Under the pieces are notes generated by a model. That model worked only from the letters and a program-made list of their open reading frames with translations, did not search any database and was not told the DNA's origin. From Ilumatobacteraceae bacterium (GTDB taxonomy: Bacteria; Actinomycetota; Acidimicrobiia; Acidimicrobiales; Ilumatobacteraceae): a stretch of 64,000 nucleotides of DNA. Made by a program: the position numbers and the translations under genes. Where the stretch lies: the NCBI GenBank assembly GCA_035527095.1, contig DATLBC010000140.1:6820-70819 (forward strand). Direction: 5' to 3'. The first letter of the stretch is position 1, and every line of letters starts with the position of its first letter. Shown piece by piece: positions 1 to 34,973 of the stretch.

Positions 1-799
1 GCAGTTCGATCGCCGGCAGGTACTTGGCGCGGATCCGGGCGGCCCCGATCGAGGCGTTTCGGATGTCGTCCGCCTCGGTACGCAACCGCTTCGATTGGAC
101 GGATTCGGCGCCGAAACCCTTGACGACTCGAACCCCGCCGACGGTCTCCTCGACCACCGTGGCCAACTCGGCCTGCTCGGCCTGCACGGCGAGCACCGCC
201 GAGTGGATCGAGTGCGAGAACCGCCGTCCCGCGATGTTGACGAACGGCAGCGGCGCCAGCGCGATGAGTGCGAGTTTCCAGTCGGTTGCGAACAAAATCA
301 CCGAGACGGCGATGATCATCGAGAAGTTCGACAACGTGATCGGAATCATCACGACGAACGACTGGATCTGGTTCAGGTCGCTCGACGAGCGGCTCATCAG
401 CTGACCGGTCTGGGCCCGGTCGTGGTATCCGATGTGCAGCGACAAGATGTGGTTGAACAGTTGCTCGCGAAGACGCGTCTCGGTCCAGCGGGCTTCCCGG
501 AAGGCGTAGAACCGTCGCAGCGCGGTGAACGTGCCGACAGCGACACCGGCGAGCGCGATGAGCGACGCCCACAGCAGCAACATGTCGTCCTGCTCGATAC
601 CGCGGTCGATGCTGTAGCGCACGAGCAGAGGCACCGAGACCTTGCCGACCATCCACAACAGGCCGACCGCACTACCGATGATCAGGTTCTTGCGCTGCGC
701 GCGCAACGTCGACGACAGCAGCTTCCACCGCGACGGCGAATCGTACGCGTCGGTCCCCGGCGCAGGAACCTCGTTCAGCGTTGCGGTGTCAGCACTCAC
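1..799 (-). CDS. ABC transporter, exporter-type transmembrane domain (5' part of the gene; the 3' end lies beyond the window start)
   Basis: The reverse-strand frame is open from the window edge up to GTG at 799, immediately after the TGA at 802..800. My translation reads VSADTATLNEVPAPGTDAYDSPSRWKLLSSTLRAQRKNLIIGSAVGLLWMVGKVSVPLLVRYSIDRGIEQDD...GYHDRAQTGQLMSRSSSDLNQIQSFVVMIPITLSNF..., typical of six-helix ABC exporter membrane domains. It is absent from the ORF track because it runs off the window. Confidence 0.8.
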   Translation of the reverse strand, partial: MSADTATLNEVPAPGTDAYDSPSRWKLLSSTLRAQRKNLIIGSAVGLLWMVGKVSVPLLVRYSIDRGIEQDDMLLLWASLIALAGVAVGTFTALRRFYAFREARWTETRLREQLFNHILSLHIGYHDRAQTGQLMSRSSSDLNQIQSFVVMIPITLSNFSMIIAVSVILFATDWKLALIALAPLPFVNIAGRRFSHSIHSAVLAVQAEQAELATVVEETVGGVRVVKGFGAESVQSKRLRTEADDIRNASIGAARIRAKYLPAIEL

Positions 800-1198
800 T
801 CAACCGGCATCGTTCCCCGACCGCGATGCGAGCGGCGCGAGCAGCTCGGTGACGCGTTCCTTGGGCCGACCGACGATCGCCGTGTCGGCGGTGACCACGA
901 CCGGTCGTTGCAGCAGTTGCTTGTGCTTGACCAACAGGTTCACGATCTGCTCGTCGGTCGCAGCGTCGTCGTCGGTCAATCCGAGCTTCTTCCACATGCT
1001 GTCGCGCCGTACCAGCGCCGTTGGCTCGTCCTCGAGCTTGGCGATGATCGACCGCAGGGTGTCCGCGTCCGGCGGTGTCTTGATGTACATCACGATGTCG
1101 ACCTCGACGCCCAGGTCTTCGGCAATGCGCACGGCATTGACGGAGGAGTTTCAATGCGCGTTGTGGAAGATGGTTGCGACTGCGTTGCTGCTGGCCAT
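800..1198 (-). CDS. ArsC/Spx-family (glutaredoxin-fold) reductase with in-frame TGA at the catalytic Cys position (candidate selenocysteine)
   Basis: The track ORF 800..1132 (…DIVMYIKTPPDADTLRSIIAKLED…LLQRPVVVTADTAIVGRPKERV) extends in the same frame to ATG 1198: MASSNAVATIFHNAH-[TGA 1153..1151]-NSSVNAVRIAEDLGVEV…. This aligns with the E. coli ArsC N-terminus ITIYHNPAC(12)GTSRNTLEMIRNSG, with the TGA opposite Cys12. Confidence 0.65.
1123..1139 (-). other. SECIS-like hairpin downstream of the arsC-like TGA
   Basis: On the coding strand, 11 nt after the TGA: CAAUGC-CGUGC-GCAUUG, a 6-bp perfect stem with a 5-nt loop containing GU. Confidence 0.4.
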
Positions 1199-1313: not shown

Positions 1314-1745
1314 ATGTCTCGCGACCGCATGTTCCGCCGGGTGCCGAGAGGTGGCATCGACCCGATCCGCTGCGCCGACGATGCGCTGGCCGTCCTCGCG
1401 CTGGCCGCACCGTACGATCACGACACCATCGTCGTCCTGCTCGACGCCAACCGTTGCGGCTCGTCGGTGATGGTCGTCACGGACACCATCGATCACGACG
1501 CATTGTTCGAGGTGATCGGCGTCTGCGTCGCTTCGGCCGCGCCGCAGACGGCGATCGAGGCGATGATCGTGGCCTCGAGCCGACCCGACGGCGATGTCGA
1601 GCCGGACGATGTCCATCGATGGCTGGAGGCCAGCGACCAATGCCGCGCCGGCGGCCTCGAGTTGGTCGAGTGGTTCGTGCTCGGCCGGTCGGGCCCGAGA
1701 CTCCCCCGCGAACTGTTCGGTGAGCGCGATCGGTGGGCGCCATGA
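1314..1745 (+). CDS. hypothetical protein
   Basis: 143-aa ORF with ATG start preceded by GAAGGAG, genome-typical G/C third positions and a non-repetitive composition. I recognised no family. Confidence 0.55.
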   Translation: MSRDRMFRRVPRGGIDPIRCADDALAVLALAAPYDHDTIVVLLDANRCGSSVMVVTDTIDHDALFEVIGVCVASAAPQTAIEAMIVASSRPDGDVEPDDVHRWLEASDQCRAGGLELVEWFVLGRSGPRLPRELFGERDRWAP

Positions 1746-1768: not shown

Positions 1769-2047
1769 TCACCCCGTGCGGGCGCGACGTTCGGCCGGCG
1801 TCAGTCGCAGGCCGGCGGCGCGCAGACGCCGGACCAGCTCGCGACTCTCGACCTGCTCCGCGCCGGCGGCGATCAGTTCGGCTCGGTACTCCTCGGGGAT
1901 GTCGTAATGGTCGCCTTGGAACCCTCGACGGGGGATACCGGTGCGGTCGGCGAACTCGTGCAGTTCGTCGTACGACGAGTCGCTGACGAGGTGGCACCAC
2001 CTCTTGCCTCGCCACCACCAGCGCGCTTCGTCGATCAGGATCGTCAC
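1769..2047 (-). CDS. DUF4031-like protein
   Basis: VTILIDEARWWWRGKRWCHLVSDSSYDELHEFADRTGIPRRGFQGDHYDIPEEYR matches the DUF4031 signature as I remember it. I chose the GTG at 2047 rather than the longest ORF start at 2077. Confidence 0.7.
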   Translation of the reverse strand: MTILIDEARWWWRGKRWCHLVSDSSYDELHEFADRTGIPRRGFQGDHYDIPEEYRAELIAAGAEQVESRELVRRLRAAGLRLTPAERRARTG

Positions 2048-2084
2048 CGCATCACCCTGCCACGACCGCTGGCACACTGGTGCG

Positions 2085-2717
2085 ATGAGCGACCGAGACC
2101 TCGAACTGGACGTTGCCTGGCAGCGCCACGTCGCGACCGACCGAACGCTCCTCGACGGGTTGCTCGCGCGTCATCGGGAGAAACACCGGCGCTACCACAC
2201 CGCCACTCACGTTGCGTGGGTGATCCGTCACGTCGACGAGCTCGCCACCGCGGAACCGGTCGAGCACCTCGACGAGGTGATGGCCGCCGCGTTCTACCAC
2301 GACGCCGTCTACGAACCCACGTATCCGGCCAACGAGCGAGCAAGCGCACGGCTGGCCCGCCGCGACCTCGCCTCGATCGGCTGGCGCGACGACGCGGTCG
2401 GCCGCGTCGGCTCGATGATCGAGGCGACCGAACACGACGCAACGAACACCGAACAGCCACAGGGTGACACGGCGATCCTGCTCGATGCCGACCTCGCGAT
2501 CCTCGGCGCCGACCCAGCCGGCTACGCCGCCTACGTCACCGGCATCCGAGGTGAATACCGACACGTCACCGACGACGGCTGGCGCACGGGACGCGCCAAG
2601 GTCCTGCGCGACTTCCTGGAACGCCCGACGATCTACCTCACCCCGACGGGCCGAGAACGGTGGGAGCCCCGAGCCCGCGCCAACCTGGCTGCCGAACTGG
2701 CGCCGCTGGCCGACTGA
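2085..2717 (+). CDS. HD-domain metal-dependent phosphohydrolase-like protein
   Basis: ATG at 2085 lies inside track ORF 1941..2717. Motifs are HRRYHTATHV… and AAFYHDAVYE (H…HD). The upstream part of the long ORF is low-complexity and overlaps the divergent gene. Confidence 0.7.
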   Translation: MSDRDLELDVAWQRHVATDRTLLDGLLARHREKHRRYHTATHVAWVIRHVDELATAEPVEHLDEVMAAAFYHDAVYEPTYPANERASARLARRDLASIGWRDDAVGRVGSMIEATEHDATNTEQPQGDTAILLDADLAILGADPAGYAAYVTGIRGEYRHVTDDGWRTGRAKVLRDFLERPTIYLTPTGRERWEPRARANLAAELAPLAD

Positions 2718-5293: not shown

Positions 5294-5564
5294 GGTCGGT
5301 CCTTCGTGGGGAGTAACGGGGTGTCCCGAAGACCTGCAGCGGAGCCCGCCGCCGGTTTCCGGCTGGGTCGGGCGAGTTCGACGAATACTCAGCGCTGGCG
5401 CTGAACTCGTGTCCCCCGCCTGACCCGTACCGGAATGAGTACGGGTGCGGGGCCGCGTGCTGCCACTGCACCTGCTGCCGCTGCTGCGGCGGCGGCTGCC
5501 GCTACTGCGGCGACAATGACGATGAGCACGTGACGCACCCTACCGGATCTGTTTGACTGACACC

Positions 5565-5855
5565 ATGACCGACCTCGAAACGATGCCTGTCGAGCGTGTC
5601 GATGTCGACACCGACGAGACCACCGAAACCGGCGAACCGACCGCTGCTCACATCGTCAAGACCAAGCGCGGCGAGAATGCCGCAGCGGTCGTGTTGGAGG
5701 CGCGAGTGATGGGCACTCCGATCGAGGCGCTGTGCGGGTTCGTGTGGGTGCCCTCTCGCGATCCCAAGCAGTTGCCGGTGTGCGAGAAGTGCAAGAGCGT
5801 CTACGGGATGTACAAAGCGTTCAACGACGGCTTGAGCGACACGCCGAACGACTGA
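5565..5855 (+). CDS. DUF3039-like protein
   Basis: …AAHIVKTKRGENAAAVVLEARVMGTPIEALCGFVWVPSRDPKQLPVCEKCKSVY… resembles the conserved actinobacterial DUF3039 core (ALCG…P.CP.CK..Y). I chose ATG 5565; a TTG at 5553 is the alternative. Confidence 0.75.
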   Translation: MTDLETMPVERVDVDTDETTETGEPTAAHIVKTKRGENAAAVVLEARVMGTPIEALCGFVWVPSRDPKQLPVCEKCKSVYGMYKAFNDGLSDTPND

Positions 5856-5864
5856 CCCCCCCCG

Positions 5865-6356
5865 ATGGCCCAACTCCGCATCCGCCAGGCGGTGCGCGCG
5901 CTCCTCGTCACACCCGACCAGCACATCCTGCTCGTCCGTTTCGAGTTCCCGACCCGCACGGTGTGGGCGCTGCCCGGCGGCGGCCTCGACCCGGGCGAGA
6001 CGCACATCGACGCGTTGCACCGCGAGCTGATCGAAGAGGTCGGGCTGCACGATCCTGTCGTCGGTGCGCACGTCTGGGATCGCGAACACCTCATCGCCCA
6101 CGACGACGGCCTGTGGGACGGTCAACGCGACCGCTACTACCTTGTCGAGACGGTCGAGCGGTTCGAGCCGGCGCCGGCGCTGAGTTGGGAACAACTGCGC
6201 GCCGAGCGGCTCCACGAGTTGCGCTGGTGGCACATCGACGACATCGAACGGGCCACGATTGATGGCGCGTGGTTCTCGCCTCGAGCGCTCGCTGCCCATC
6301 TCCGGGTACTGATCAGCGACGGGCCGCCGGCAGCGCCAATCGACACCGGCGTGTGA
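5865..6356 (+). CDS. NUDIX hydrolase
   Basis: Nudix box: WALPGGGLDPGETHIDALHRELIEEVGL. Confidence 0.85.
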   Translation: MAQLRIRQAVRALLVTPDQHILLVRFEFPTRTVWALPGGGLDPGETHIDALHRELIEEVGLHDPVVGAHVWDREHLIAHDDGLWDGQRDRYYLVETVERFEPAPALSWEQLRAERLHELRWWHIDDIERATIDGAWFSPRALAAHLRVLISDGPPAAPIDTGV

Positions 6357-6365
6357 CAGGCGCGG

Positions 6366-6605
6366 TCACTCGGTGACTGTGTGGGCGACCAGCACGTTGT
6401 GCGGCGCCCGCTTGATCACGTCGCCTGCCGCCGAACCGGGCACCCGGCTCAACCCTCGGACTCGGCGCTTGCCGACGACGATCGTTCGGGCCTGGAGCCG
6501 CTCAGCCTCGACACACAGCACCGTGGCGGGGTCCCCCTGGCCGATTGTTCGACTGATCGACGGACCCTTTGGCCCGAGCACATACGCGTATTGATCAGCA
6601 TCCAA
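6366..6605 (-). pseudogene. universal stress protein (UspA family), C-terminal remnant only
   Basis: …GDPATVLCVEAERLQARTIVVGKRRVRGLSRVPGSAAGDVIKRAPHNVLVAHT is the C-terminal half of a USP domain with a degenerate G-x2-G-x9-G-S motif. The frame is closed by TAA at 6608..6606 and the upstream sequence is AT-rich non-coding, so the N-terminal half is missing. Confidence 0.55.
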
Positions 6606-6796
6606 TTACACCGTCAGACTTGTCGATCTACTCGGTCGTCACCCCAACAATGCACACGATTTGGGACGAATCTCCAGCTATTCATCTGTGTATGCAACTA
6701 TTACTCGCGCAATGTATTGGAGAATTGACCCCGACATATTCCTTGTATTTCGGCAATGATTTGGTTAACGTTTGCTGGATAGGGAAGGGGACGGAC

Positions 6797-7231
6797 ATGG
6801 GGTCAATTCACAAGTCGATCGCGCTTCTTGCGCTGGGGTCGCTGATATTCGTGGGGTCTGCATGCGGGTCTGACGACGACGGGGGAAGTAGCGGTTCAAC
6901 ACAACTCGAGGCGACGCTGTCCGACTTCCAGTTCGAGCCTGACAGTTGGACCGCTGCGGCCGACGAGGACGTGACGATCGCCCTGACGAACGACGGAGCC
7001 GTCGCCCACGAATGGGTGATCCTGCAACCGGACGTCACCATCGCGAGCGAAGCCGATCTTCCCGCCACAGAGGAAGAACTGCTTGCCGACTTCGTGCTCA
7101 CCGAGACCGAGGTGGAACCCGGCGAGACGCAGGACATGGTCTTCAACGTGCCGGCCGGGACATACCAGATCATCTGCGCCATCGAAACCCATTTCGACGC
7201 CGGCATGGAGGGCACGCTCACCGTCGAGTGA
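6797..7231 (+). CDS. cupredoxin (type-1 blue copper) lipoprotein
   Basis: ATG 6797 follows GGGAAGGGG. The signal peptide with Cys reads MGSIHKSIALLALGSLIFVGSAC. Copper ligand pattern is …AVAHEW… and YQIICAIETHFDAGMEG (C-x4-H-x4-M). Confidence 0.85.
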   Translation: MGSIHKSIALLALGSLIFVGSACGSDDDGGSSGSTQLEATLSDFQFEPDSWTAAADEDVTIALTNDGAVAHEWVILQPDVTIASEADLPATEEELLADFVLTETEVEPGETQDMVFNVPAGTYQIICAIETHFDAGMEGTLTVE

Positions 7232-7235
7232 TGCC

Positions 7236-7694
7236 ATGTTCTCCAAGTCCGATCATCGAGGCATCACGAACGGTCGTGCATCCGCACTTGCGTCGATGCT
7301 CGCATCAGTTGCGCTGACGCTGGGGGTTGCGGGGTGCGGGCCCGACGGACCCGACATGGTGGGCGGGCAGATCGTCGACGTCGACGACACCGACGACGTC
7401 GCGCTCAGTTCGGGCGACTCGGTTCGAATCGCCATGTCCGAATTCGAGTTCTCCCCCCACGAATTCATCGCCGAGCCCGGCGATTACTCCGGCGAACTCG
7501 TCAACGAGGGAGCGGTGCTGCACAATCTGACATTCGCCGACGGCACGTCGTACCCGGTGGCACCGGGCGAGTCCGTCACGATCGAGTTGCTGGTGCCCGA
7601 TGACGGCCTGACGTTCTTCTGCTCGATCGAAGGCCACGAAGCCGCCGGTATGACTGGCGAGATCCACACACCAGAGACGCACGACAGCACCTGA
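7236..7694 (+). CDS. cupredoxin (type-1 blue copper) lipoprotein, paralog
   Basis: ATG 7236. The lipobox is LTLGVAGC. Ligand pattern is …AVLHNL… and FFCSIEGHEAAGMTG (C-x4-H-x4-M). It sits in tandem, 4 nt after the previous gene. Confidence 0.85.
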   Translation: MFSKSDHRGITNGRASALASMLASVALTLGVAGCGPDGPDMVGGQIVDVDDTDDVALSSGDSVRIAMSEFEFSPHEFIAEPGDYSGELVNEGAVLHNLTFADGTSYPVAPGESVTIELLVPDDGLTFFCSIEGHEAAGMTGEIHTPETHDST

Positions 7695-7719
7695 CGGCCA
7701 CCATCTCGGTCGTGCACCC

Positions 7720-8539
7720 TCAGCGCTGGTGGTGACTCGTTCGGATGATGCAGGTCTGCTGGGCGGTCGACGCGGTCGACATCAGGCGTCCGTCCTGGCT
7801 CCACATCCTCAGCACGCCGTGGCCGATCGAGCGGTGGAAACGCTCGGGGATCGACTCCATCAGCACCCACTCAGTCGGCTCGGTATCGATGACACGCAAG
7901 GTGTTGTCGATGCTGGTCGCTCCCGGCATCGCACCCATCGCGGCGCCGTGCCCATGGGAATGATGTCAGCGGCGTATGCCTGCGACGCCGGCGTGCCAAT
8001 CTGGTAGCGACGATGCGGCACCAGATCGACAAGCTGGCGTGCTGCGGGTTGTCGACCGCCTCCATCCCGAAGGTTCCTGCAGCCAACCGGTGTTCCATCG
8101 TCCTGAAGAACGAGGTCGACAGATCCATCGCGAACGGGCCACCCATGTTCGGACAGTCATCCGGCCCCGAAATACCGGGCATCTGGACGAACTGCGCCGT
8201 GTCAACCCCAGGCCGGATCGTGTGAGCGCACATCGACGTGAAGACGGGTGCGCCATCGACGGTCGCAACGACTGGCGACTGGGACGTGACACGCCCCTCA
8301 GCGAGGACCGTGACCTGGAGTTCGACGGCGGAGCCAGGGGCCGGCGACCCGATGAACTGCGTCGTGATCCACTGCGGCGGTCGGTCGGTCGTGCGTTCCG
8401 CTGCTTCGATCGATGCGGCGATGCCACTGCCCCCGTAGAGGAACCCGGACGGCGTCGAGAGATCGGGACGAACAGCGAGTCGGTAGTGCCCGTCGCCTTC
8501 CGACTTCTGGAGATCGAGGAAGTCGAAGGTCGCCAGCAC
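7720..8539 (-). pseudogene. acyl-CoA thioesterase (double hot-dog, TesB-like) disrupted by two frameshifts
   Basis: The N-terminal 175 aa in frame A (8539 downward: MLATFDFLDLQKSEGDGHYRL…SLSIWCRIV) are sensible and then degrade to ATRLARRRRRH…. The continuation YQIGTPASQAYAADIIPMGTAP is in a second frame (about 8006..7941). The C-terminus MGAMPGATSIDNTLRVIDTEPTEWVLMES…GHGVLRMWSQDGRLMSTASTAQQTCIIR is in the third frame (7938..7720). Confidence 0.65.
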
Positions 8540-8562
8540 GAGCGGAGGGGTCAGTCGGCCGA

Positions 8563-8795
8563 GCCGTCACGGGCGAGGACGATCTCCCCGACACCGAGGA
8601 GGAATTGCTCGCCGACTCGTGCTCACCGAGCACGGAAGTCGAATCCGGCGCGACCGAGGAAATGGTCATCAACGTTCCTGCGGGGACCCATCAGATCATC
8701 TGCGCCATCGACACCCATTTCGATGCCGGCATGGAAGGCACGAAGCGGCGGGAATGCGCGGCGAGATCCGCACGCTCGAACACCGCGACACCTGA
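8563..8795 (+). pseudogene. relic of a third cupredoxin gene (3' half only, frameshifted, chimeric tail)
   Basis: …DDLPDTEEELLAD(frameshift)…EVESGATEEMVINVPAGTHQIICAIDTHFDAGMEG parallels gene 1 (ADLPATEEELLADFVLTETEVEPGETQDMVFNVPAGTYQIICAIETHFDAGMEG) at both DNA and protein level. After a +2 shift it continues HEAAGMRGEIRTLEHRDT*, resembling the gene 2 tail GHEAAGMTGEIHTPETHDST*. There is no N-terminal half and no start codon. Confidence 0.6.
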
Positions 8796-8828
8796 CTGCC
8801 CGCGGGCGCCGCCCGTACAGTTGGGTGG

Positions 8829-9437
8829 GTGACCATCGTGGCGATCGACGGGCCGACCGGCGTCGGGAAGAGCACCACCGCGCGTGCCCTGGCCGAACGA
8901 CTCGGAGCCGACCTCCTGCTCGACCCCGTCTCGGTCAGTCCACTACTCGACGACTACTACACCGGCGAGGCGGCGCCGGCGGCCGCACTCGACAGCGAAC
9001 TCGCGTTCCTGCACGGGCGGGCGCGCTTGATGGCCGACGTCGAGCCGGGCCGGTTGGTCGTCAGCGACTTCACGGTGATGCGCACCGCGCCCTTCGCCGA
9101 GTTCCTTCACGACCCTGCCGATCGCCGACGGGTGCTCGACGAGATGCGAGAGCTCCTGGTGATGCTGCCGCGGGTGGACGTCCTCGTCCTGCTCGATGCG
9201 GCACCGGAGGTCCTGCTCGGGCGCGTCCGAACCCGCGACCGCAGCGCCGAAGAGGCGCTGACGATCGAGCACCTCGTCGAGCTCCATCGCCACTTTCGTG
9301 CGTGGCGCTCCGAACTGACCGCGCACGCCGACTCGACACTGGAGATCGACACGACGGACTGGGACCCTCGTAGCAACAGCGACGTCGATGATCTCGTCAC
9401 ACGAGTCGCCTCCCTGCTCACCGTTCGCGGCACCTAG
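8829..9437 (+). CDS. deoxynucleoside kinase family protein
   Basis: GTG start. The P-loop is IAIDGPTGVGKST, and …LLLDAAPEVLLGRVRTRDRSAEE… is the dNK-type LID/R-rich region. Confidence 0.75.
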   Translation: MTIVAIDGPTGVGKSTTARALAERLGADLLLDPVSVSPLLDDYYTGEAAPAAALDSELAFLHGRARLMADVEPGRLVVSDFTVMRTAPFAEFLHDPADRRRVLDEMRELLVMLPRVDVLVLLDAAPEVLLGRVRTRDRSAEEALTIEHLVELHRHFRAWRSELTAHADSTLEIDTTDWDPRSNSDVDDLVTRVASLLTVRGT

Positions 9438-29141: not shown

Positions 29142-30827
29142 TCAGGCACGGATGGCGACAGCGACCGGCTCGTCGTGCACCGACCGGGCGGCCGACTTCG
29201 CGTGGTAACTCGACCGGGTGAGCGGGCTCGCTTCGACGTGCCCGACGCCGTACGACTCGCCGAGCTGCTTCCACTGGTCGAACTCGGCCGGCTCTGCGTA
29301 GCGGGCGATCGGAAGGTGGTGCGACGTCGGGCGCAGGTACTGCCCGATCGTGACGATGTCGACGCCCAGGTCGGCGAGGTCGGCCAGCAACCCCTCGATC
29401 TCGTCGTCGGTCTCGCCGAGCCCGACCATGAACCCGGTCTTGGTGGTGAGCCCCGCTGCTTTGGCACGGGCGAGCACGCCGAGCGATCGGGCGTATCCGG
29501 CCGACGGCCGCACGGCGCGCTGCAAGCGAGCGACCGTCTCGACGTTGTGGTTCACCACATCGGGTCGCACCGCGAGCAGCAGGTCGAGCGCTGCCTCGTC
29601 GCCCTTCGCATCGGAGATCAGCGTTTCGATCTGCGTTGCTGGGCGACGCACGCGGATCGCCTCGACACACGCCGCCACATGGGCCATCCCACCGTCGGCG
29701 AGGTCGTCGCGTGCGACCATGGTCAGCACCGCATGGTCGAGGCCCATCCGGTCGATCGCCTCGGCGACCCGCGCCGGCTCGTCGCCTGCGGGCGAAAGCG
29801 GCTTGTTCGTGTCGACGAGACAGAACCCGCACGCTCGAGTGCAGCGCTCGCCCAGGACCATGAACGTGGCGGTGCCGTCGGCCCAACACTCGGACAGATT
29901 GGGGCAGCCCGCGTCCTCACACACAGTGACGAGGTCGAGATCGCGCACCGTCTTCTTGAGAGACATCACATCGGCGCCGAGTGCGACCTTTGGTCGCAGC
30001 CACGCGGGCTTGCGCGTCTCGATCGACAGGCCCTCCGTGACACCCGCAGCCTCGAGACGACCAGCAGCCCGGTCGGACACCAGCTTCACCTGCTCTCCCG
30101 GGCCCTCGCCCCGCGAGAACGCGGACACGTCGCGGCCGTCCGCGGCGTGCTTCCATGCGACGTCTTGTCGTTCGATGGCGCCGCCGGCCCACCGGTCAGC
30201 GGCGAGACGGGCGATCACGTCGACGACCTCACGCATCGACACGTCGACGCTTTCCTCGGCAAGCGACGTGACCGGCTTGTCGCCGATGCCACACGGCACG
30301 ATGTGGTCGCGCAGATAGGTCATGTCGGTCGTGACGTTGAGGGCGAAGCCGTGCATCGTGCGACCGTGCGCAAGCCGGACCCCGATCGCACAGATCTTGC
30401 GGGGCTGTACCGACGGGTCGGGGTGGTCGACGTCGAGCCAGACGCCGGCGAATCCCTCCAACCGACCGGCGTTCGCCAACCCGAGTTCGGCGAGCGCGTC
30501 GATGACGAGCCCCTCGACGTTGCACACGTGATCCGAGGCGCCCAGACGGTTGTCGACGTTGACGACCGGATACCCGACCAACTGGCCCGGGCCGTGGTAG
30601 GTGATGTCGCCACCGCGCTTGACCGACACCAGCTCGGCACCGACCACCGCGGGCTCGCAGCGGAGGTTGTCGGCAAGGTTCGCTCGCTTGCCATGGGTGA
30701 ACACGTGCGGATGTTCGAGCAGCAGCAGGTGCTGTCCCTCGCCGCGCTCGAACACGGCCGTCTGCACGGCCAACGCTTCGCGGTATGGCACCCGCCCCAA
30801 CCAGCGGACGCGCAACGGGCCAGTCAC
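29142..30827 (-). CDS. lipB-lipA: fused lipoyl(octanoyl) transferase LipB / lipoyl synthase LipA
   Basis: A single 561-aa ORF. LipB motifs lie in residues 1 to about 215 (LLLLEHPHVFTHG, GGDITYHGPGQLVGYP, RKICAIGV, IVPCGI). After a roughly 50-aa linker come the LipA motifs (CEDAGCPNLSEC, CTRACGFCLV radical-SAM CxxxCxxC, …HNVETV…GLGETDDE…ITIGQYLRP…SSYHA). Confidence 0.9.
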   Translation of the reverse strand: MTGPLRVRWLGRVPYREALAVQTAVFERGEGQHLLLLEHPHVFTHGKRANLADNLRCEPAVVGAELVSVKRGGDITYHGPGQLVGYPVVNVDNRLGASDHVCNVEGLVIDALAELGLANAGRLEGFAGVWLDVDHPDPSVQPRKICAIGVRLAHGRTMHGFALNVTTDMTYLRDHIVPCGIGDKPVTSLAEESVDVSMREVVDVIARLAADRWAGGAIERQDVAWKHAADGRDVSAFSRGEGPGEQVKLVSDRAAGRLEAAGVTEGLSIETRKPAWLRPKVALGADVMSLKKTVRDLDLVTVCEDAGCPNLSECWADGTATFMVLGERCTRACGFCLVDTNKPLSPAGDEPARVAEAIDRMGLDHAVLTMVARDDLADGGMAHVAACVEAIRVRRPATQIETLISDAKGDEAALDLLLAVRPDVVNHNVETVARLQRAVRPSAGYARSLGVLARAKAAGLTTKTGFMVGLGETDDEIEGLLADLADLGVDIVTIGQYLRPTSHHLPIARYAEPAEFDQWKQLGESYGVGHVEASPLTRSSYHAKSAARSVHDEPVAVAIRA

Positions 30828-34325: not shown

Positions 34326-34973
34326 GTGAGAACGACACGACGCCACGCCGTCAGCGGCGCAATCGGGGCCGCTGTGCTGCTGCTCGCAGCGACCGCCTGC
34401 GGCTCCGAGTCGAACGATTCGACCACCGAGTCGCTGCCCGGGGCCGTGGTCGAAGCGACGACCGGCCCGACCGAGGCACCCATCACCTCAGCGCCGACGA
34501 CGGCCGGCACCGGCGACACATCACCACCGGCCGTCGACGCCGACCCAGCGCCGGCCCAACCCGCCGTCTTCGTGCCCGAGGCACTGCAGTTCACCGCCCC
34601 CCTCGTCGGAGGAGGCACCTTCGACGGCGCGGCTGCCGCCGGCAAGCCGACGGTGTTCTGGTTCTGGGCGCCCACTTGAAGCGCGTGCAACCGTGAAGCC
34701 ACCTCGGTCGAGGAGGCAGCAGTGCAGTTCCAGGATCAGGCCAACTTCTACGGTGTTGCATGGACCGGAAGCGACGACTCGTTCCAGGGGTTCATCGACA
34801 AGCACGGCCTGACGTTCCCGCAGATCAGCGATGATCCCGGCGACGTCTTCGACCGATTCGATGTGTCGTATCAGCCGGCATTCGCGATCGTGAACACCGA
34901 TGGATCGACCGAACTGGTCCTCGGAGCCATCGACGACCAACTGCTCGGCCAGATCATCTCCGAAGCGACTTGA
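34326..34973 (+). CDS. TlpA/ResA-like thioredoxin-fold lipoprotein with TGA in place of the first Cys of CxxC (candidate selenoprotein, U-S-A-C)
   Basis: Track ORFs 33777..34679 and 34722..34973 are in the same frame, separated only by TGA 34677..34679. The N-terminus (GTG 34326) is RTTRRHAVSGAIGAAVLLLAATAC (lipoprotein signal). The active-site region reads …GKPTVFWFWAPT-U-SAC-NREA…, and the downstream fold includes …GLTFPQISDDPGDVFDRFDVSYQPAFAIVNTDG…. Confidence 0.7.
34698..34717 (+). other. SECIS-like hairpin downstream of the tlpA-like TGA
   Basis: 18 nt after the TGA: GCCACCUC-GGUC-GAGGAGGC, giving 7 Watson-Crick pairs, one A·A mismatch and a GGUC tetraloop. Confidence 0.45.

Follow-up and report, generated by a model that had tools for sequence, protein, structure and literature searches.

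Does a TGA codon within the minus-strand frame of an ArsC-family gene end translation, or is it read as selenocysteine (Sec)? The question arises in a stretch of 64,000 nucleotides (64 kb; referred to here as the window), in which a frame running from an ATG at 1198..1196 to a TGA at 802..800 on the minus strand is interrupted by a single TGA at 1153..1151. From the ATG, this frame reads MASSNAVATIFHNAH-[TGA]-NSSVNAVRIAEDLGV... Translated across the interruption, the coding sequence at 800..1198 (minus strand) consists of 132 codons plus the stop, with the internal TGA as codon 16 and the TGA at 800..802 as the true stop codon. Gene callers cut this gene to a 110-amino-acid open reading frame at 800..1132, and the mechanical list of open reading frames for the window contains only this GTG-initiated product for arsC. 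A preliminary description of the locus had extended the listed frame 5' from its GTG through one TGA to an ATG at 1198 and had read the gene as that of an ArsC-family reductase containing Sec, with the hairpin as its SECIS. The coordinates given there are exact, and the interpretation is supported by the presence of TGA in 79 of 80 genomes, the conserved upstream frame, and a control with cysteine (Cys)-type genes. On the sequence evidence set out below, the frame at 1198..800 is a predicted selenoprotein gene, with an estimated probability of about 0.9.

Family and active site of the predicted read-through product

Profile searches with Pfam and NCBIfam were run on the translated protein with a C in place of the U. 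Pfam ArsC (PF03960) is hit with an E value of 5.9e-13 and scores 49.4 bits, where the cutoff is 24. Among the NCBIfam models, arsC (TIGR00014) comes first with 94.2 bits, which misses the equivalog cutoff of 106.05, and the second rank is held by the model for the Grx-dependent arsenate reductase. The Spx models lie far below (48.7 bits versus 75.05 for TIGR01617 and 19.3 bits versus 123 for NF002459). Of the earlier label ArsC/Spx, the ArsC part is retained on the basis of PF03960 and TIGR00014, whereas the Spx part is given up, with both Spx models under their cutoffs and a redox motif of the UxxS type. Since the TIGR00014 score stays below its cutoff, the gene is filed as an ArsC family member with probable arsenate reductase function and not as a proven equivalog.

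The structures 1I9D and 1JZW of ArsC from E. coli plasmid R773 align colinearly with the window protein over R773 residues 4 to 117 (E value of ∼3e-17), and position 16, encoded by the TGA, sits opposite Cys12. This bears out the proposed colinearity with E. coli ArsC and the placement of the TGA opposite Cys12. In the 1I9D alignment, R773 His8, Ser15, Arg60, Arg94, and Arg107 correspond to H12, S19, R64, R98, and R111 of the window protein, and the redox motif is U-N-S-S, of the UxxS type and not CxxC. The protein therefore resembles the glutaredoxin-coupled R773 ArsC in its fold, its colinear alignment, and these residue equivalents but differs in its nucleophile, which is predicted to be Sec instead of Cys12, in the position of its gene outside an ars operon, and in its score below the TIGR00014 equivalog cutoff. 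To our knowledge, Actinomycetota generally lack glutathione.

If the TGA were a genuine stop, the locus would comprise a 15-codon upstream open reading frame followed by a 110-amino-acid ArsC-fold protein starting from the GTG at 1132, in line with the products of 103 to 113 amino acids that gene callers and public databases give for most relatives and with the absence of detectable Sec machinery from the window. Such an arrangement is highly improbable. The first strand of the ArsC fold and its catalytic residue come from the 15 upstream codons, in agreement with the earlier claim that the active site and the first fold unit would be lost without read-through. These codons and the ATG are conserved at the protein level, with synonymous variation, in 79 genomes, and full-length Cys orthologs at this locus stay colinear with them through the TGA position. 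Furthermore, the annotated GTG "start" at 1132..1130 (minus strand) lies within the loop of the hairpin described below and is preceded by CUCCUCC, which is not a Shine-Dalgarno sequence.

Selenoproteins of the type favored here have been described before. In 2005, 14 Sargasso Sea sequences with a predicted SECIS were reported to make up a new family of selenoproteins, "arsenate reductase" with the motif UxxS (Zhang, Fomenko, and Gladyshev; PMC1088965), and a survey of the GOS data counted 77 Sec versus 784 Cys homologs of the UxxS arsenate reductase (Zhang and Gladyshev, 2008; PMC2398784). A 2026 AEM review places arsenate reductase (ArsC) 1, UxxS, under TIGR00014 and regards nearly all such selenoproteins as functionally uncharacterized (PMC13188914). 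Like the members of the ArsC-1 UxxS family, the window gene is a homolog of ArsC/pfam03960 (COG1393) in which a TGA replaces the codon for the catalytic Cys, giving U-x-x-S, with a stem-loop straight after the UGA that carries a G in a small apical loop, and with abundant Cys homologs. The published sets stem from marine metagenomes, with no taxonomic assignment in the available text, whereas the carriers found here belong to Ilumatobacteraceae/Acidimicrobiia. Nothing essential separates the window gene from this family; the window gene is conservedly paired with an ABC exporter. As it fits every feature tested, the window arsC is, judged by its sequence, a member of the known UxxS ArsC selenoprotein family. 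Arsenate reductase 2, or arsenate reductase-like (cd03032, NF041106), is likewise a selenoprotein of the ArsC/Spx superfamily that carries Sec at its N-terminal redox site, but it is UxxC and Spx-like, in contrast to the UxxS of the window protein. NF041106 is absent among the NCBIfam hits of the window protein.

Conservation of the TGA codon and its cysteine counterparts

The arsC protein has 2,661 relatives in a protein search. Most of the closest ones (85 to 94% identical) are annotated as products of 103 to 113 amino acids, with the truncation falling where it does in the window gene. A smaller set, of 120 to 125 amino acids, spans the N terminus with the sequence ...HN.HCNSS..., which has Cys exactly at the TGA position, and the motif HCNSS is present in 10 full-length homologs. 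One returned protein from an ENA metagenome, P0012 (183 amino acids), consists of an unrelated N terminus with the P-loop motif GATGSGKT joined to ArsC at RIAEELGV. This junction lies downstream of the Sec position, and P0012 is probably chimeric as a result of assembly or gene calling.

A genome scan with one genome per species yielded 80 arsC loci, nearly all of them from Ilumatobacteraceae or other Acidimicrobiia, including the isolate Ilumatobacter nonamiensis YM16-303. At the Sec position, 79 of the 80 genomes have TGA, the remaining one (L065) has TGC, and every non-TGA homolog carries the catalytic Cys at this position. Across the related loci, an ATG, corresponding to the one at 1196..1198 in the window, is located 8 to 15 codons 5' of the TGA and is followed by the conserved peptide.ATI[FY]HN.H. 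The codons of this peptide vary synonymously (ACG/ACC, ATC/ATT, TAC/TAT, and AAC/AAT) with the peptide itself conserved, so that the segment before the TGA is under protein-level selection.

TGA and TGC are one base apart, and either a pseudogene or a TGC misread in sequencing or assembly could in principle account for the interruption. The same TGA is, however, shared by 79 independent assemblies in which protein identity falls to 66 to 71%, and the comparative data show purifying selection on both sides of it, which leaves this explanation a negligible chance. A global reassignment of UGA was considered separately and is ruled out by the use of TGA as the terminator of 34 of the 38 predicted window genes, arsC included.

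Sec-type arsC genes also occur on contigs labeled as belonging to other phyla, namely, L072 and L073 (Polyangiaceae), L056 (Isosphaeraceae), and L080 (a Bifidobacterium breve metagenome-assembled genome with 53% GC). These copies show 71 to 74% identity to the window gene and lack the conserved neighbors; they could result from horizontal transfer or from mis-binning or mislabeling.

The DNA of eight distinct Cys-type genes, L065 among them, provides a control. These genes have the same neighborhood as that in the window, with a divergent gene for a 143-amino-acid protein and DUF4031 upstream and the ABC exporter downstream, and are therefore positional orthologs. In the alignment of Cys and Sec homologs, they are colinear across the TGA, with Cys exactly at its position. 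A crude neighbor-joining tree places the Cys forms at three to four separate positions among the Sec forms, which suggests that the replacement of Sec by Cys happened repeatedly.

The hairpin, its codon context, and a second TGA-containing gene

A perfect 6-bp hairpin with GU in its loop had been described 11 nucleotides 3' of the TGA, and the element CAAUGC-CGUGC-GCAUUG is indeed found at 1139..1123 on the minus strand, which corresponds to nucleotides 15 to 31 counted from the U of the UGA. In the window sequence, the hairpin core has a free energy of -5.0 kcal/mol, and the 60-nucleotide fold reaches a z value of -0.46, which is no better than chance. Thermodynamic significance was accordingly dropped as evidence for the hairpin, whose significance is therefore entirely comparative.

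Synonymous entropy in the 80 TGA-type genes is near zero at codons +4 to +9 (GTC AAT GCC GTG CGC ATT), with the flanking 4-fold sites free, and the six-codon window of minimum synonymous entropy begins exactly at +4 (0.07 versus a median of 0.70). AAT and ATT, both rare codons in these high-GC genes, are fixed in the stem: Asn is encoded by AAT in 71 of 71 cases (elsewhere, 202 AAC and 18 AAT), and Ile is encoded by ATT in 79 of 80 (elsewhere, 360 ATC and 18 ATT). The stem pairs 15:31 to 20:26 are formed in 79 to 80 of the 80 sequences. Variation is confined to a change from A-U to G-U in 9 sequences, a change from C to A in the loop in 12, and a double change at the loop edge in 2, which adds a G-C pair (CAAUGCG-GUC-CGCAUUG). 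The check for a SECIS structure proposed in the preliminary description comes out in favor through the strong conservation of the stem; covariation proper is sparse, with only the 9 G-U changes and the 2 double changes. The argument for a SECIS structure is based on the synonymous-site constraint. Extension of the SECIS by a lower stem was rejected, as the additional pairs of the minimum-free-energy fold, 12:34 and 13:33, are formed in only 32 and 40 of the 80 sequences, respectively. The form with the added G-C pair is carried by both copies labeled Polyangiaceae.

The Cys-type genes retain the peptide NAVRIA, but its codons are free (AAC/AAT, GCG/GCC/GCA, GTG/GTT/GTC, and CGC/CGA/CGG), with Ile always encoded by ATC, and 3 to 5 of the 6 stem pairs are left in the eight genes. 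A conserved hairpin in the TGA forms, compared with a broken stem and free codons in the Cys forms, is the pattern that would be expected of a SECIS. It had been pointed out earlier that TGC relatives with an otherwise identical context and no conservation of the hairpin would speak against Sec; the opposite is seen, with the codons relaxed and the stem broken in the Cys-type genes. The decay of the hairpin is graded across the Cys-type orthologs L081, L086, L088, L065, L082 to L085, and L087. L081 (positions 1350 to 1400) retains CAATGCCGTGCGCATCG, with 5 of 6 stem pairs, and looks like a decaying SECIS following the replacement of Sec by Cys.

The SECIS core of E. coli fdhF is a 17-nucleotide stem-loop at nucleotides 15 to 31, 11 nucleotides from the UGA, with G23 and U24 in the apical loop and a bulged U17 (PMC8659212). 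The arsC hairpin shares the position at nucleotides 15 to 31, the length of 17 nucleotides, and the presence of G and U in the apical loop. In contrast to the fdhF element, it has a perfect 6-bp stem with neither a bulged U nor a lower stem, and its loop is CGUGC instead of GGUC, with G22-U23-G24 placing the GU one position earlier. The bulged U and G23/U24 are features of recognition by E. coli SelB, which other SelB proteins need not share.

A second gene with an internal TGA is located at 34380..34973 on the plus strand and encodes a lipoprotein-like AhpC/TSA-Redoxin (TlpA-like) protein with the UxxC motif ...FWFWAPT-[TGA 34677]-SAC-NRE..., in which the TGA occupies 34677..34679. This codon is TGA in all 76 metagenomic relatives in which the motif was located. 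A conserved hairpin, GCC(C/A)CCUC-GGUC-GAGGAGGC, follows 18 nucleotides 3' of the TGA (34698..34717 in the window), and a compensatory change from C-G to U-A is found in 10 relatives. The gene matches the known selenoprotein family "thiol-disulfide isomerase-like, UxxC," and the TGA in 76 of 76 relatives together with the conserved hairpin backs the earlier naming of a second candidate selenoprotein in the window. That two unrelated genes retain a TGA in the place of a redox Cys and that each is accompanied by a conserved hairpin of its own would be hard to explain without Sec decoding.

The bases flanking the UGA codons of these two genes are also conserved across loci L001 to L168. The preceding base (1154 on the minus strand for arsC and 34676 on the plus strand for the TlpA-like gene) is U in 79 of 80 arsC genes, as part of CAT or AAT, and in 76 of 76 TlpA-like genes, as part of ACT or GGT. 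The following base (1150 and 34680, respectively) is A in 79 of 80 arsC genes and in 74 of 76 TlpA-like genes. A C-ending codon precedes the TGC in seven of eight Cys-type arsC genes. As T-ending codons are otherwise rare, the U-UGA-A context appears to be selected.

Decoding, genomic neighborhood, and predicted function

No selA, selB, selC, or selD was found in the 64-kb window: ARAGORN and Rfam gave no tRNA and no Rfam match, and a six-frame scan of the window found no signature motifs of SelA, SelB, or SelD. Among 35 predicted window proteins, Pfam identified only housekeeping functions, such as DnaE, the pyruvate dehydrogenase complex, ArgJ, and envelope glycosyltransferases. In ∼715 kb of related loci, ARAGORN and six-frame motif scans found neither tRNA-Sec nor SelA, SelB, or SelD motifs. 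Rfam covers bacterial SECIS elements poorly (bioRxiv 10.64898/2026.04.03.716425, methods), and the blank results of Rfam and ARAGORN on the window are therefore uninformative. A generic scan for in-frame TGA codons is too noisy in the high-GC DNA of the window, and a scan for redox motifs was used instead. A literature search for Ilumatobacter and selenocysteine returned nothing relevant. According to a 2026 preprint, each of the 84 complete Actinomarina genomes carries selA, selB, selC, and selD; Actinomarina (Actinomarinales) represents another order of the class Acidimicrobiia (bioRxiv 10.64898/2026.04.03.716425).

These blank searches, covering the window and the related loci, would also agree with read-through of the UGA without Sec, either by near-cognate insertion of Cys or Trp or by stimulation through the hairpin without SelB, as would the small size of the hairpin and its lack of a bulged U, which is present in the E. 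coli SECIS. Read-through of this kind is nevertheless very improbable. Cys at the TGA position in every non-TGA homolog is a hallmark of Sec/Cys pairs, and the size and position of the hairpin equal those of the minimal SelB-dependent SECIS (PMC8659212). The TlpA-like gene in the same window, with its UxxC motif and GGUC-loop hairpin, behaves identically. In addition, UxxS ArsC is a curated selenoprotein family (PMC1088965, PMC2398784, and PMC13188914), and another member of the class Acidimicrobiia is documented to possess Sec machinery (bioRxiv 10.64898/2026.04.03.716425).

In the Sec reading preferred here, the gene at 1198..800 would encode a 132-residue ArsC-family thiol (selenol) reductase with Sec as the nucleophile in the place of R773 Cys12. 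During translation, the UGA at 1153..1151 would be recoded as Sec, with the 17-nucleotide hairpin located 11 nucleotides downstream bringing SelB-GTP-Sec-tRNA(Sec) to the ribosome, and the terminal UGA at 802..800, which has no such hairpin, would stop translation normally. Arsenate would most probably be reduced via a Se-As adduct, which would then be resolved by the cellular thiol system. In this scheme, the dependence on SelB, the actual insertion of Sec, the choice of arsenate as substrate, and the nature of the reductant are inferred, whereas the sequence features, the membership of the family, the conservation of the TGA and of the frame before it, the synonymous constraint specific to the hairpin, and the positional orthologs of the Cys type are shown.

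The arsC gene is followed by the 5' part of an ABC exporter gene at 2..799 (minus strand; Pfam ABC_membrane, 1.1e-32), which is co-oriented with arsC and cut by the window edge. Its GTG stands directly after the arsC stop and in the same frame. Across the related loci, the exporter starts 1 to 25 nucleotides past the arsC stop on the same strand, and this adjacency is conserved in 61 loci, including those of the Cys type, which makes an operon of arsC and the ABC exporter probable. In L001, a full-length tandem pair of ABC exporter genes occupies 5400..9025. The pair matches only generic MsbA/SmdAB-like models, with all scores below the (equivalog) cutoffs, and the identification of the downstream genes as a thiol exporter (CydDC) was dropped for this reason. 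The neighbors of arsC are the ABC exporter pair, the 143-amino-acid protein, DUF4031, an MFS transporter, and malic enzyme; no arsR, arsB, or ACR3 lies near arsC, and the gene has no ars operon context.

Two further genes adjoin arsC on the plus strand, at 1314..1745 (143 amino acids) and 1941..2717 (258 amino acids). Both lack a match in Pfam and NCBIfam, yet their synteny extends over more than 50 related loci. Elsewhere in the window, a 561-amino-acid open reading frame at 29142..30827 (minus strand) combines a LipB-type octanoyl/lipoyl transferase domain (residues 15 to 206) with LIAS_N and Radical_SAM (residues 270 to 483) and appears to be a LipB-LipA fusion. It adjoins the genes for E2 and E3 of a 2-oxoacid dehydrogenase complex.

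With the residues of the arsenate site intact, arsenate reduction via the selenol is the most likely chemistry, and the arsC product is reasonably likely to be an arsenate reductase. The subcutoff TIGR00014 score, the lack of ars genes nearby, and the generic ABC exporter partner weaken this reading. The same observations, namely, the score under the equivalog cutoff, the absence of nearby ars genes, and the tight pairing of arsC with the ABC exporter in 61 loci, would suit a genuine ArsC-fold selenoprotein with a physiological substrate other than arsenate, for example, a selenol reductase serving the ABC exporter or another thiol/redox pathway. Nearly all selenoproteins of this kind are functionally uncharacterized (PMC13188914), which also leaves room for such a role. 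Against it stand the retention of all R773-type site residues (His8, Cys12 as Sec, Ser15, Arg60, Arg94, and Arg107) and the arsenate reductases as the top matches in both family and structure searches, so that a substrate other than arsenate is unlikely. A more specific and decidedly tentative proposal is that the Sec-ArsC of the Ilumatobacteraceae might form the selenol redox part of a module of arsC and the ABC exporter, acting on another substrate outside arsenic resistance, and that, separately, the SelB of this lineage might read a compact signal common to both selenoprotein genes and composed of a sequence-invariant 17-nucleotide hairpin and the selected U-UGA-A context.

The current understanding of selenoproteins is unchanged by the window arsC, as its family has been known since 2005 and the gene has so far been misannotated. 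The main value of the finding is the correction of this annotation: in no fewer than 79 species-level genomes and in most of the relatives from metagenomes, the gene is entered as a fragment of 103 to 113 amino acids without the active site. The gene would also offer a clear natural case of a bacterial SECIS with minimal geometry, in which matched Sec and Cys orthologs indicate the decay of the SECIS after the replacement of Sec by Cys. If true, the compact SelB signal would provide a lineage-specific rule for the prediction of selenoproteins in high-GC Actinomycetota. The finding would place Sec decoding in the Ilumatobacteraceae, a common actinobacterial family of aquatic and soil habitats, with two predicted selenoprotein genes in a single 64-kb window.
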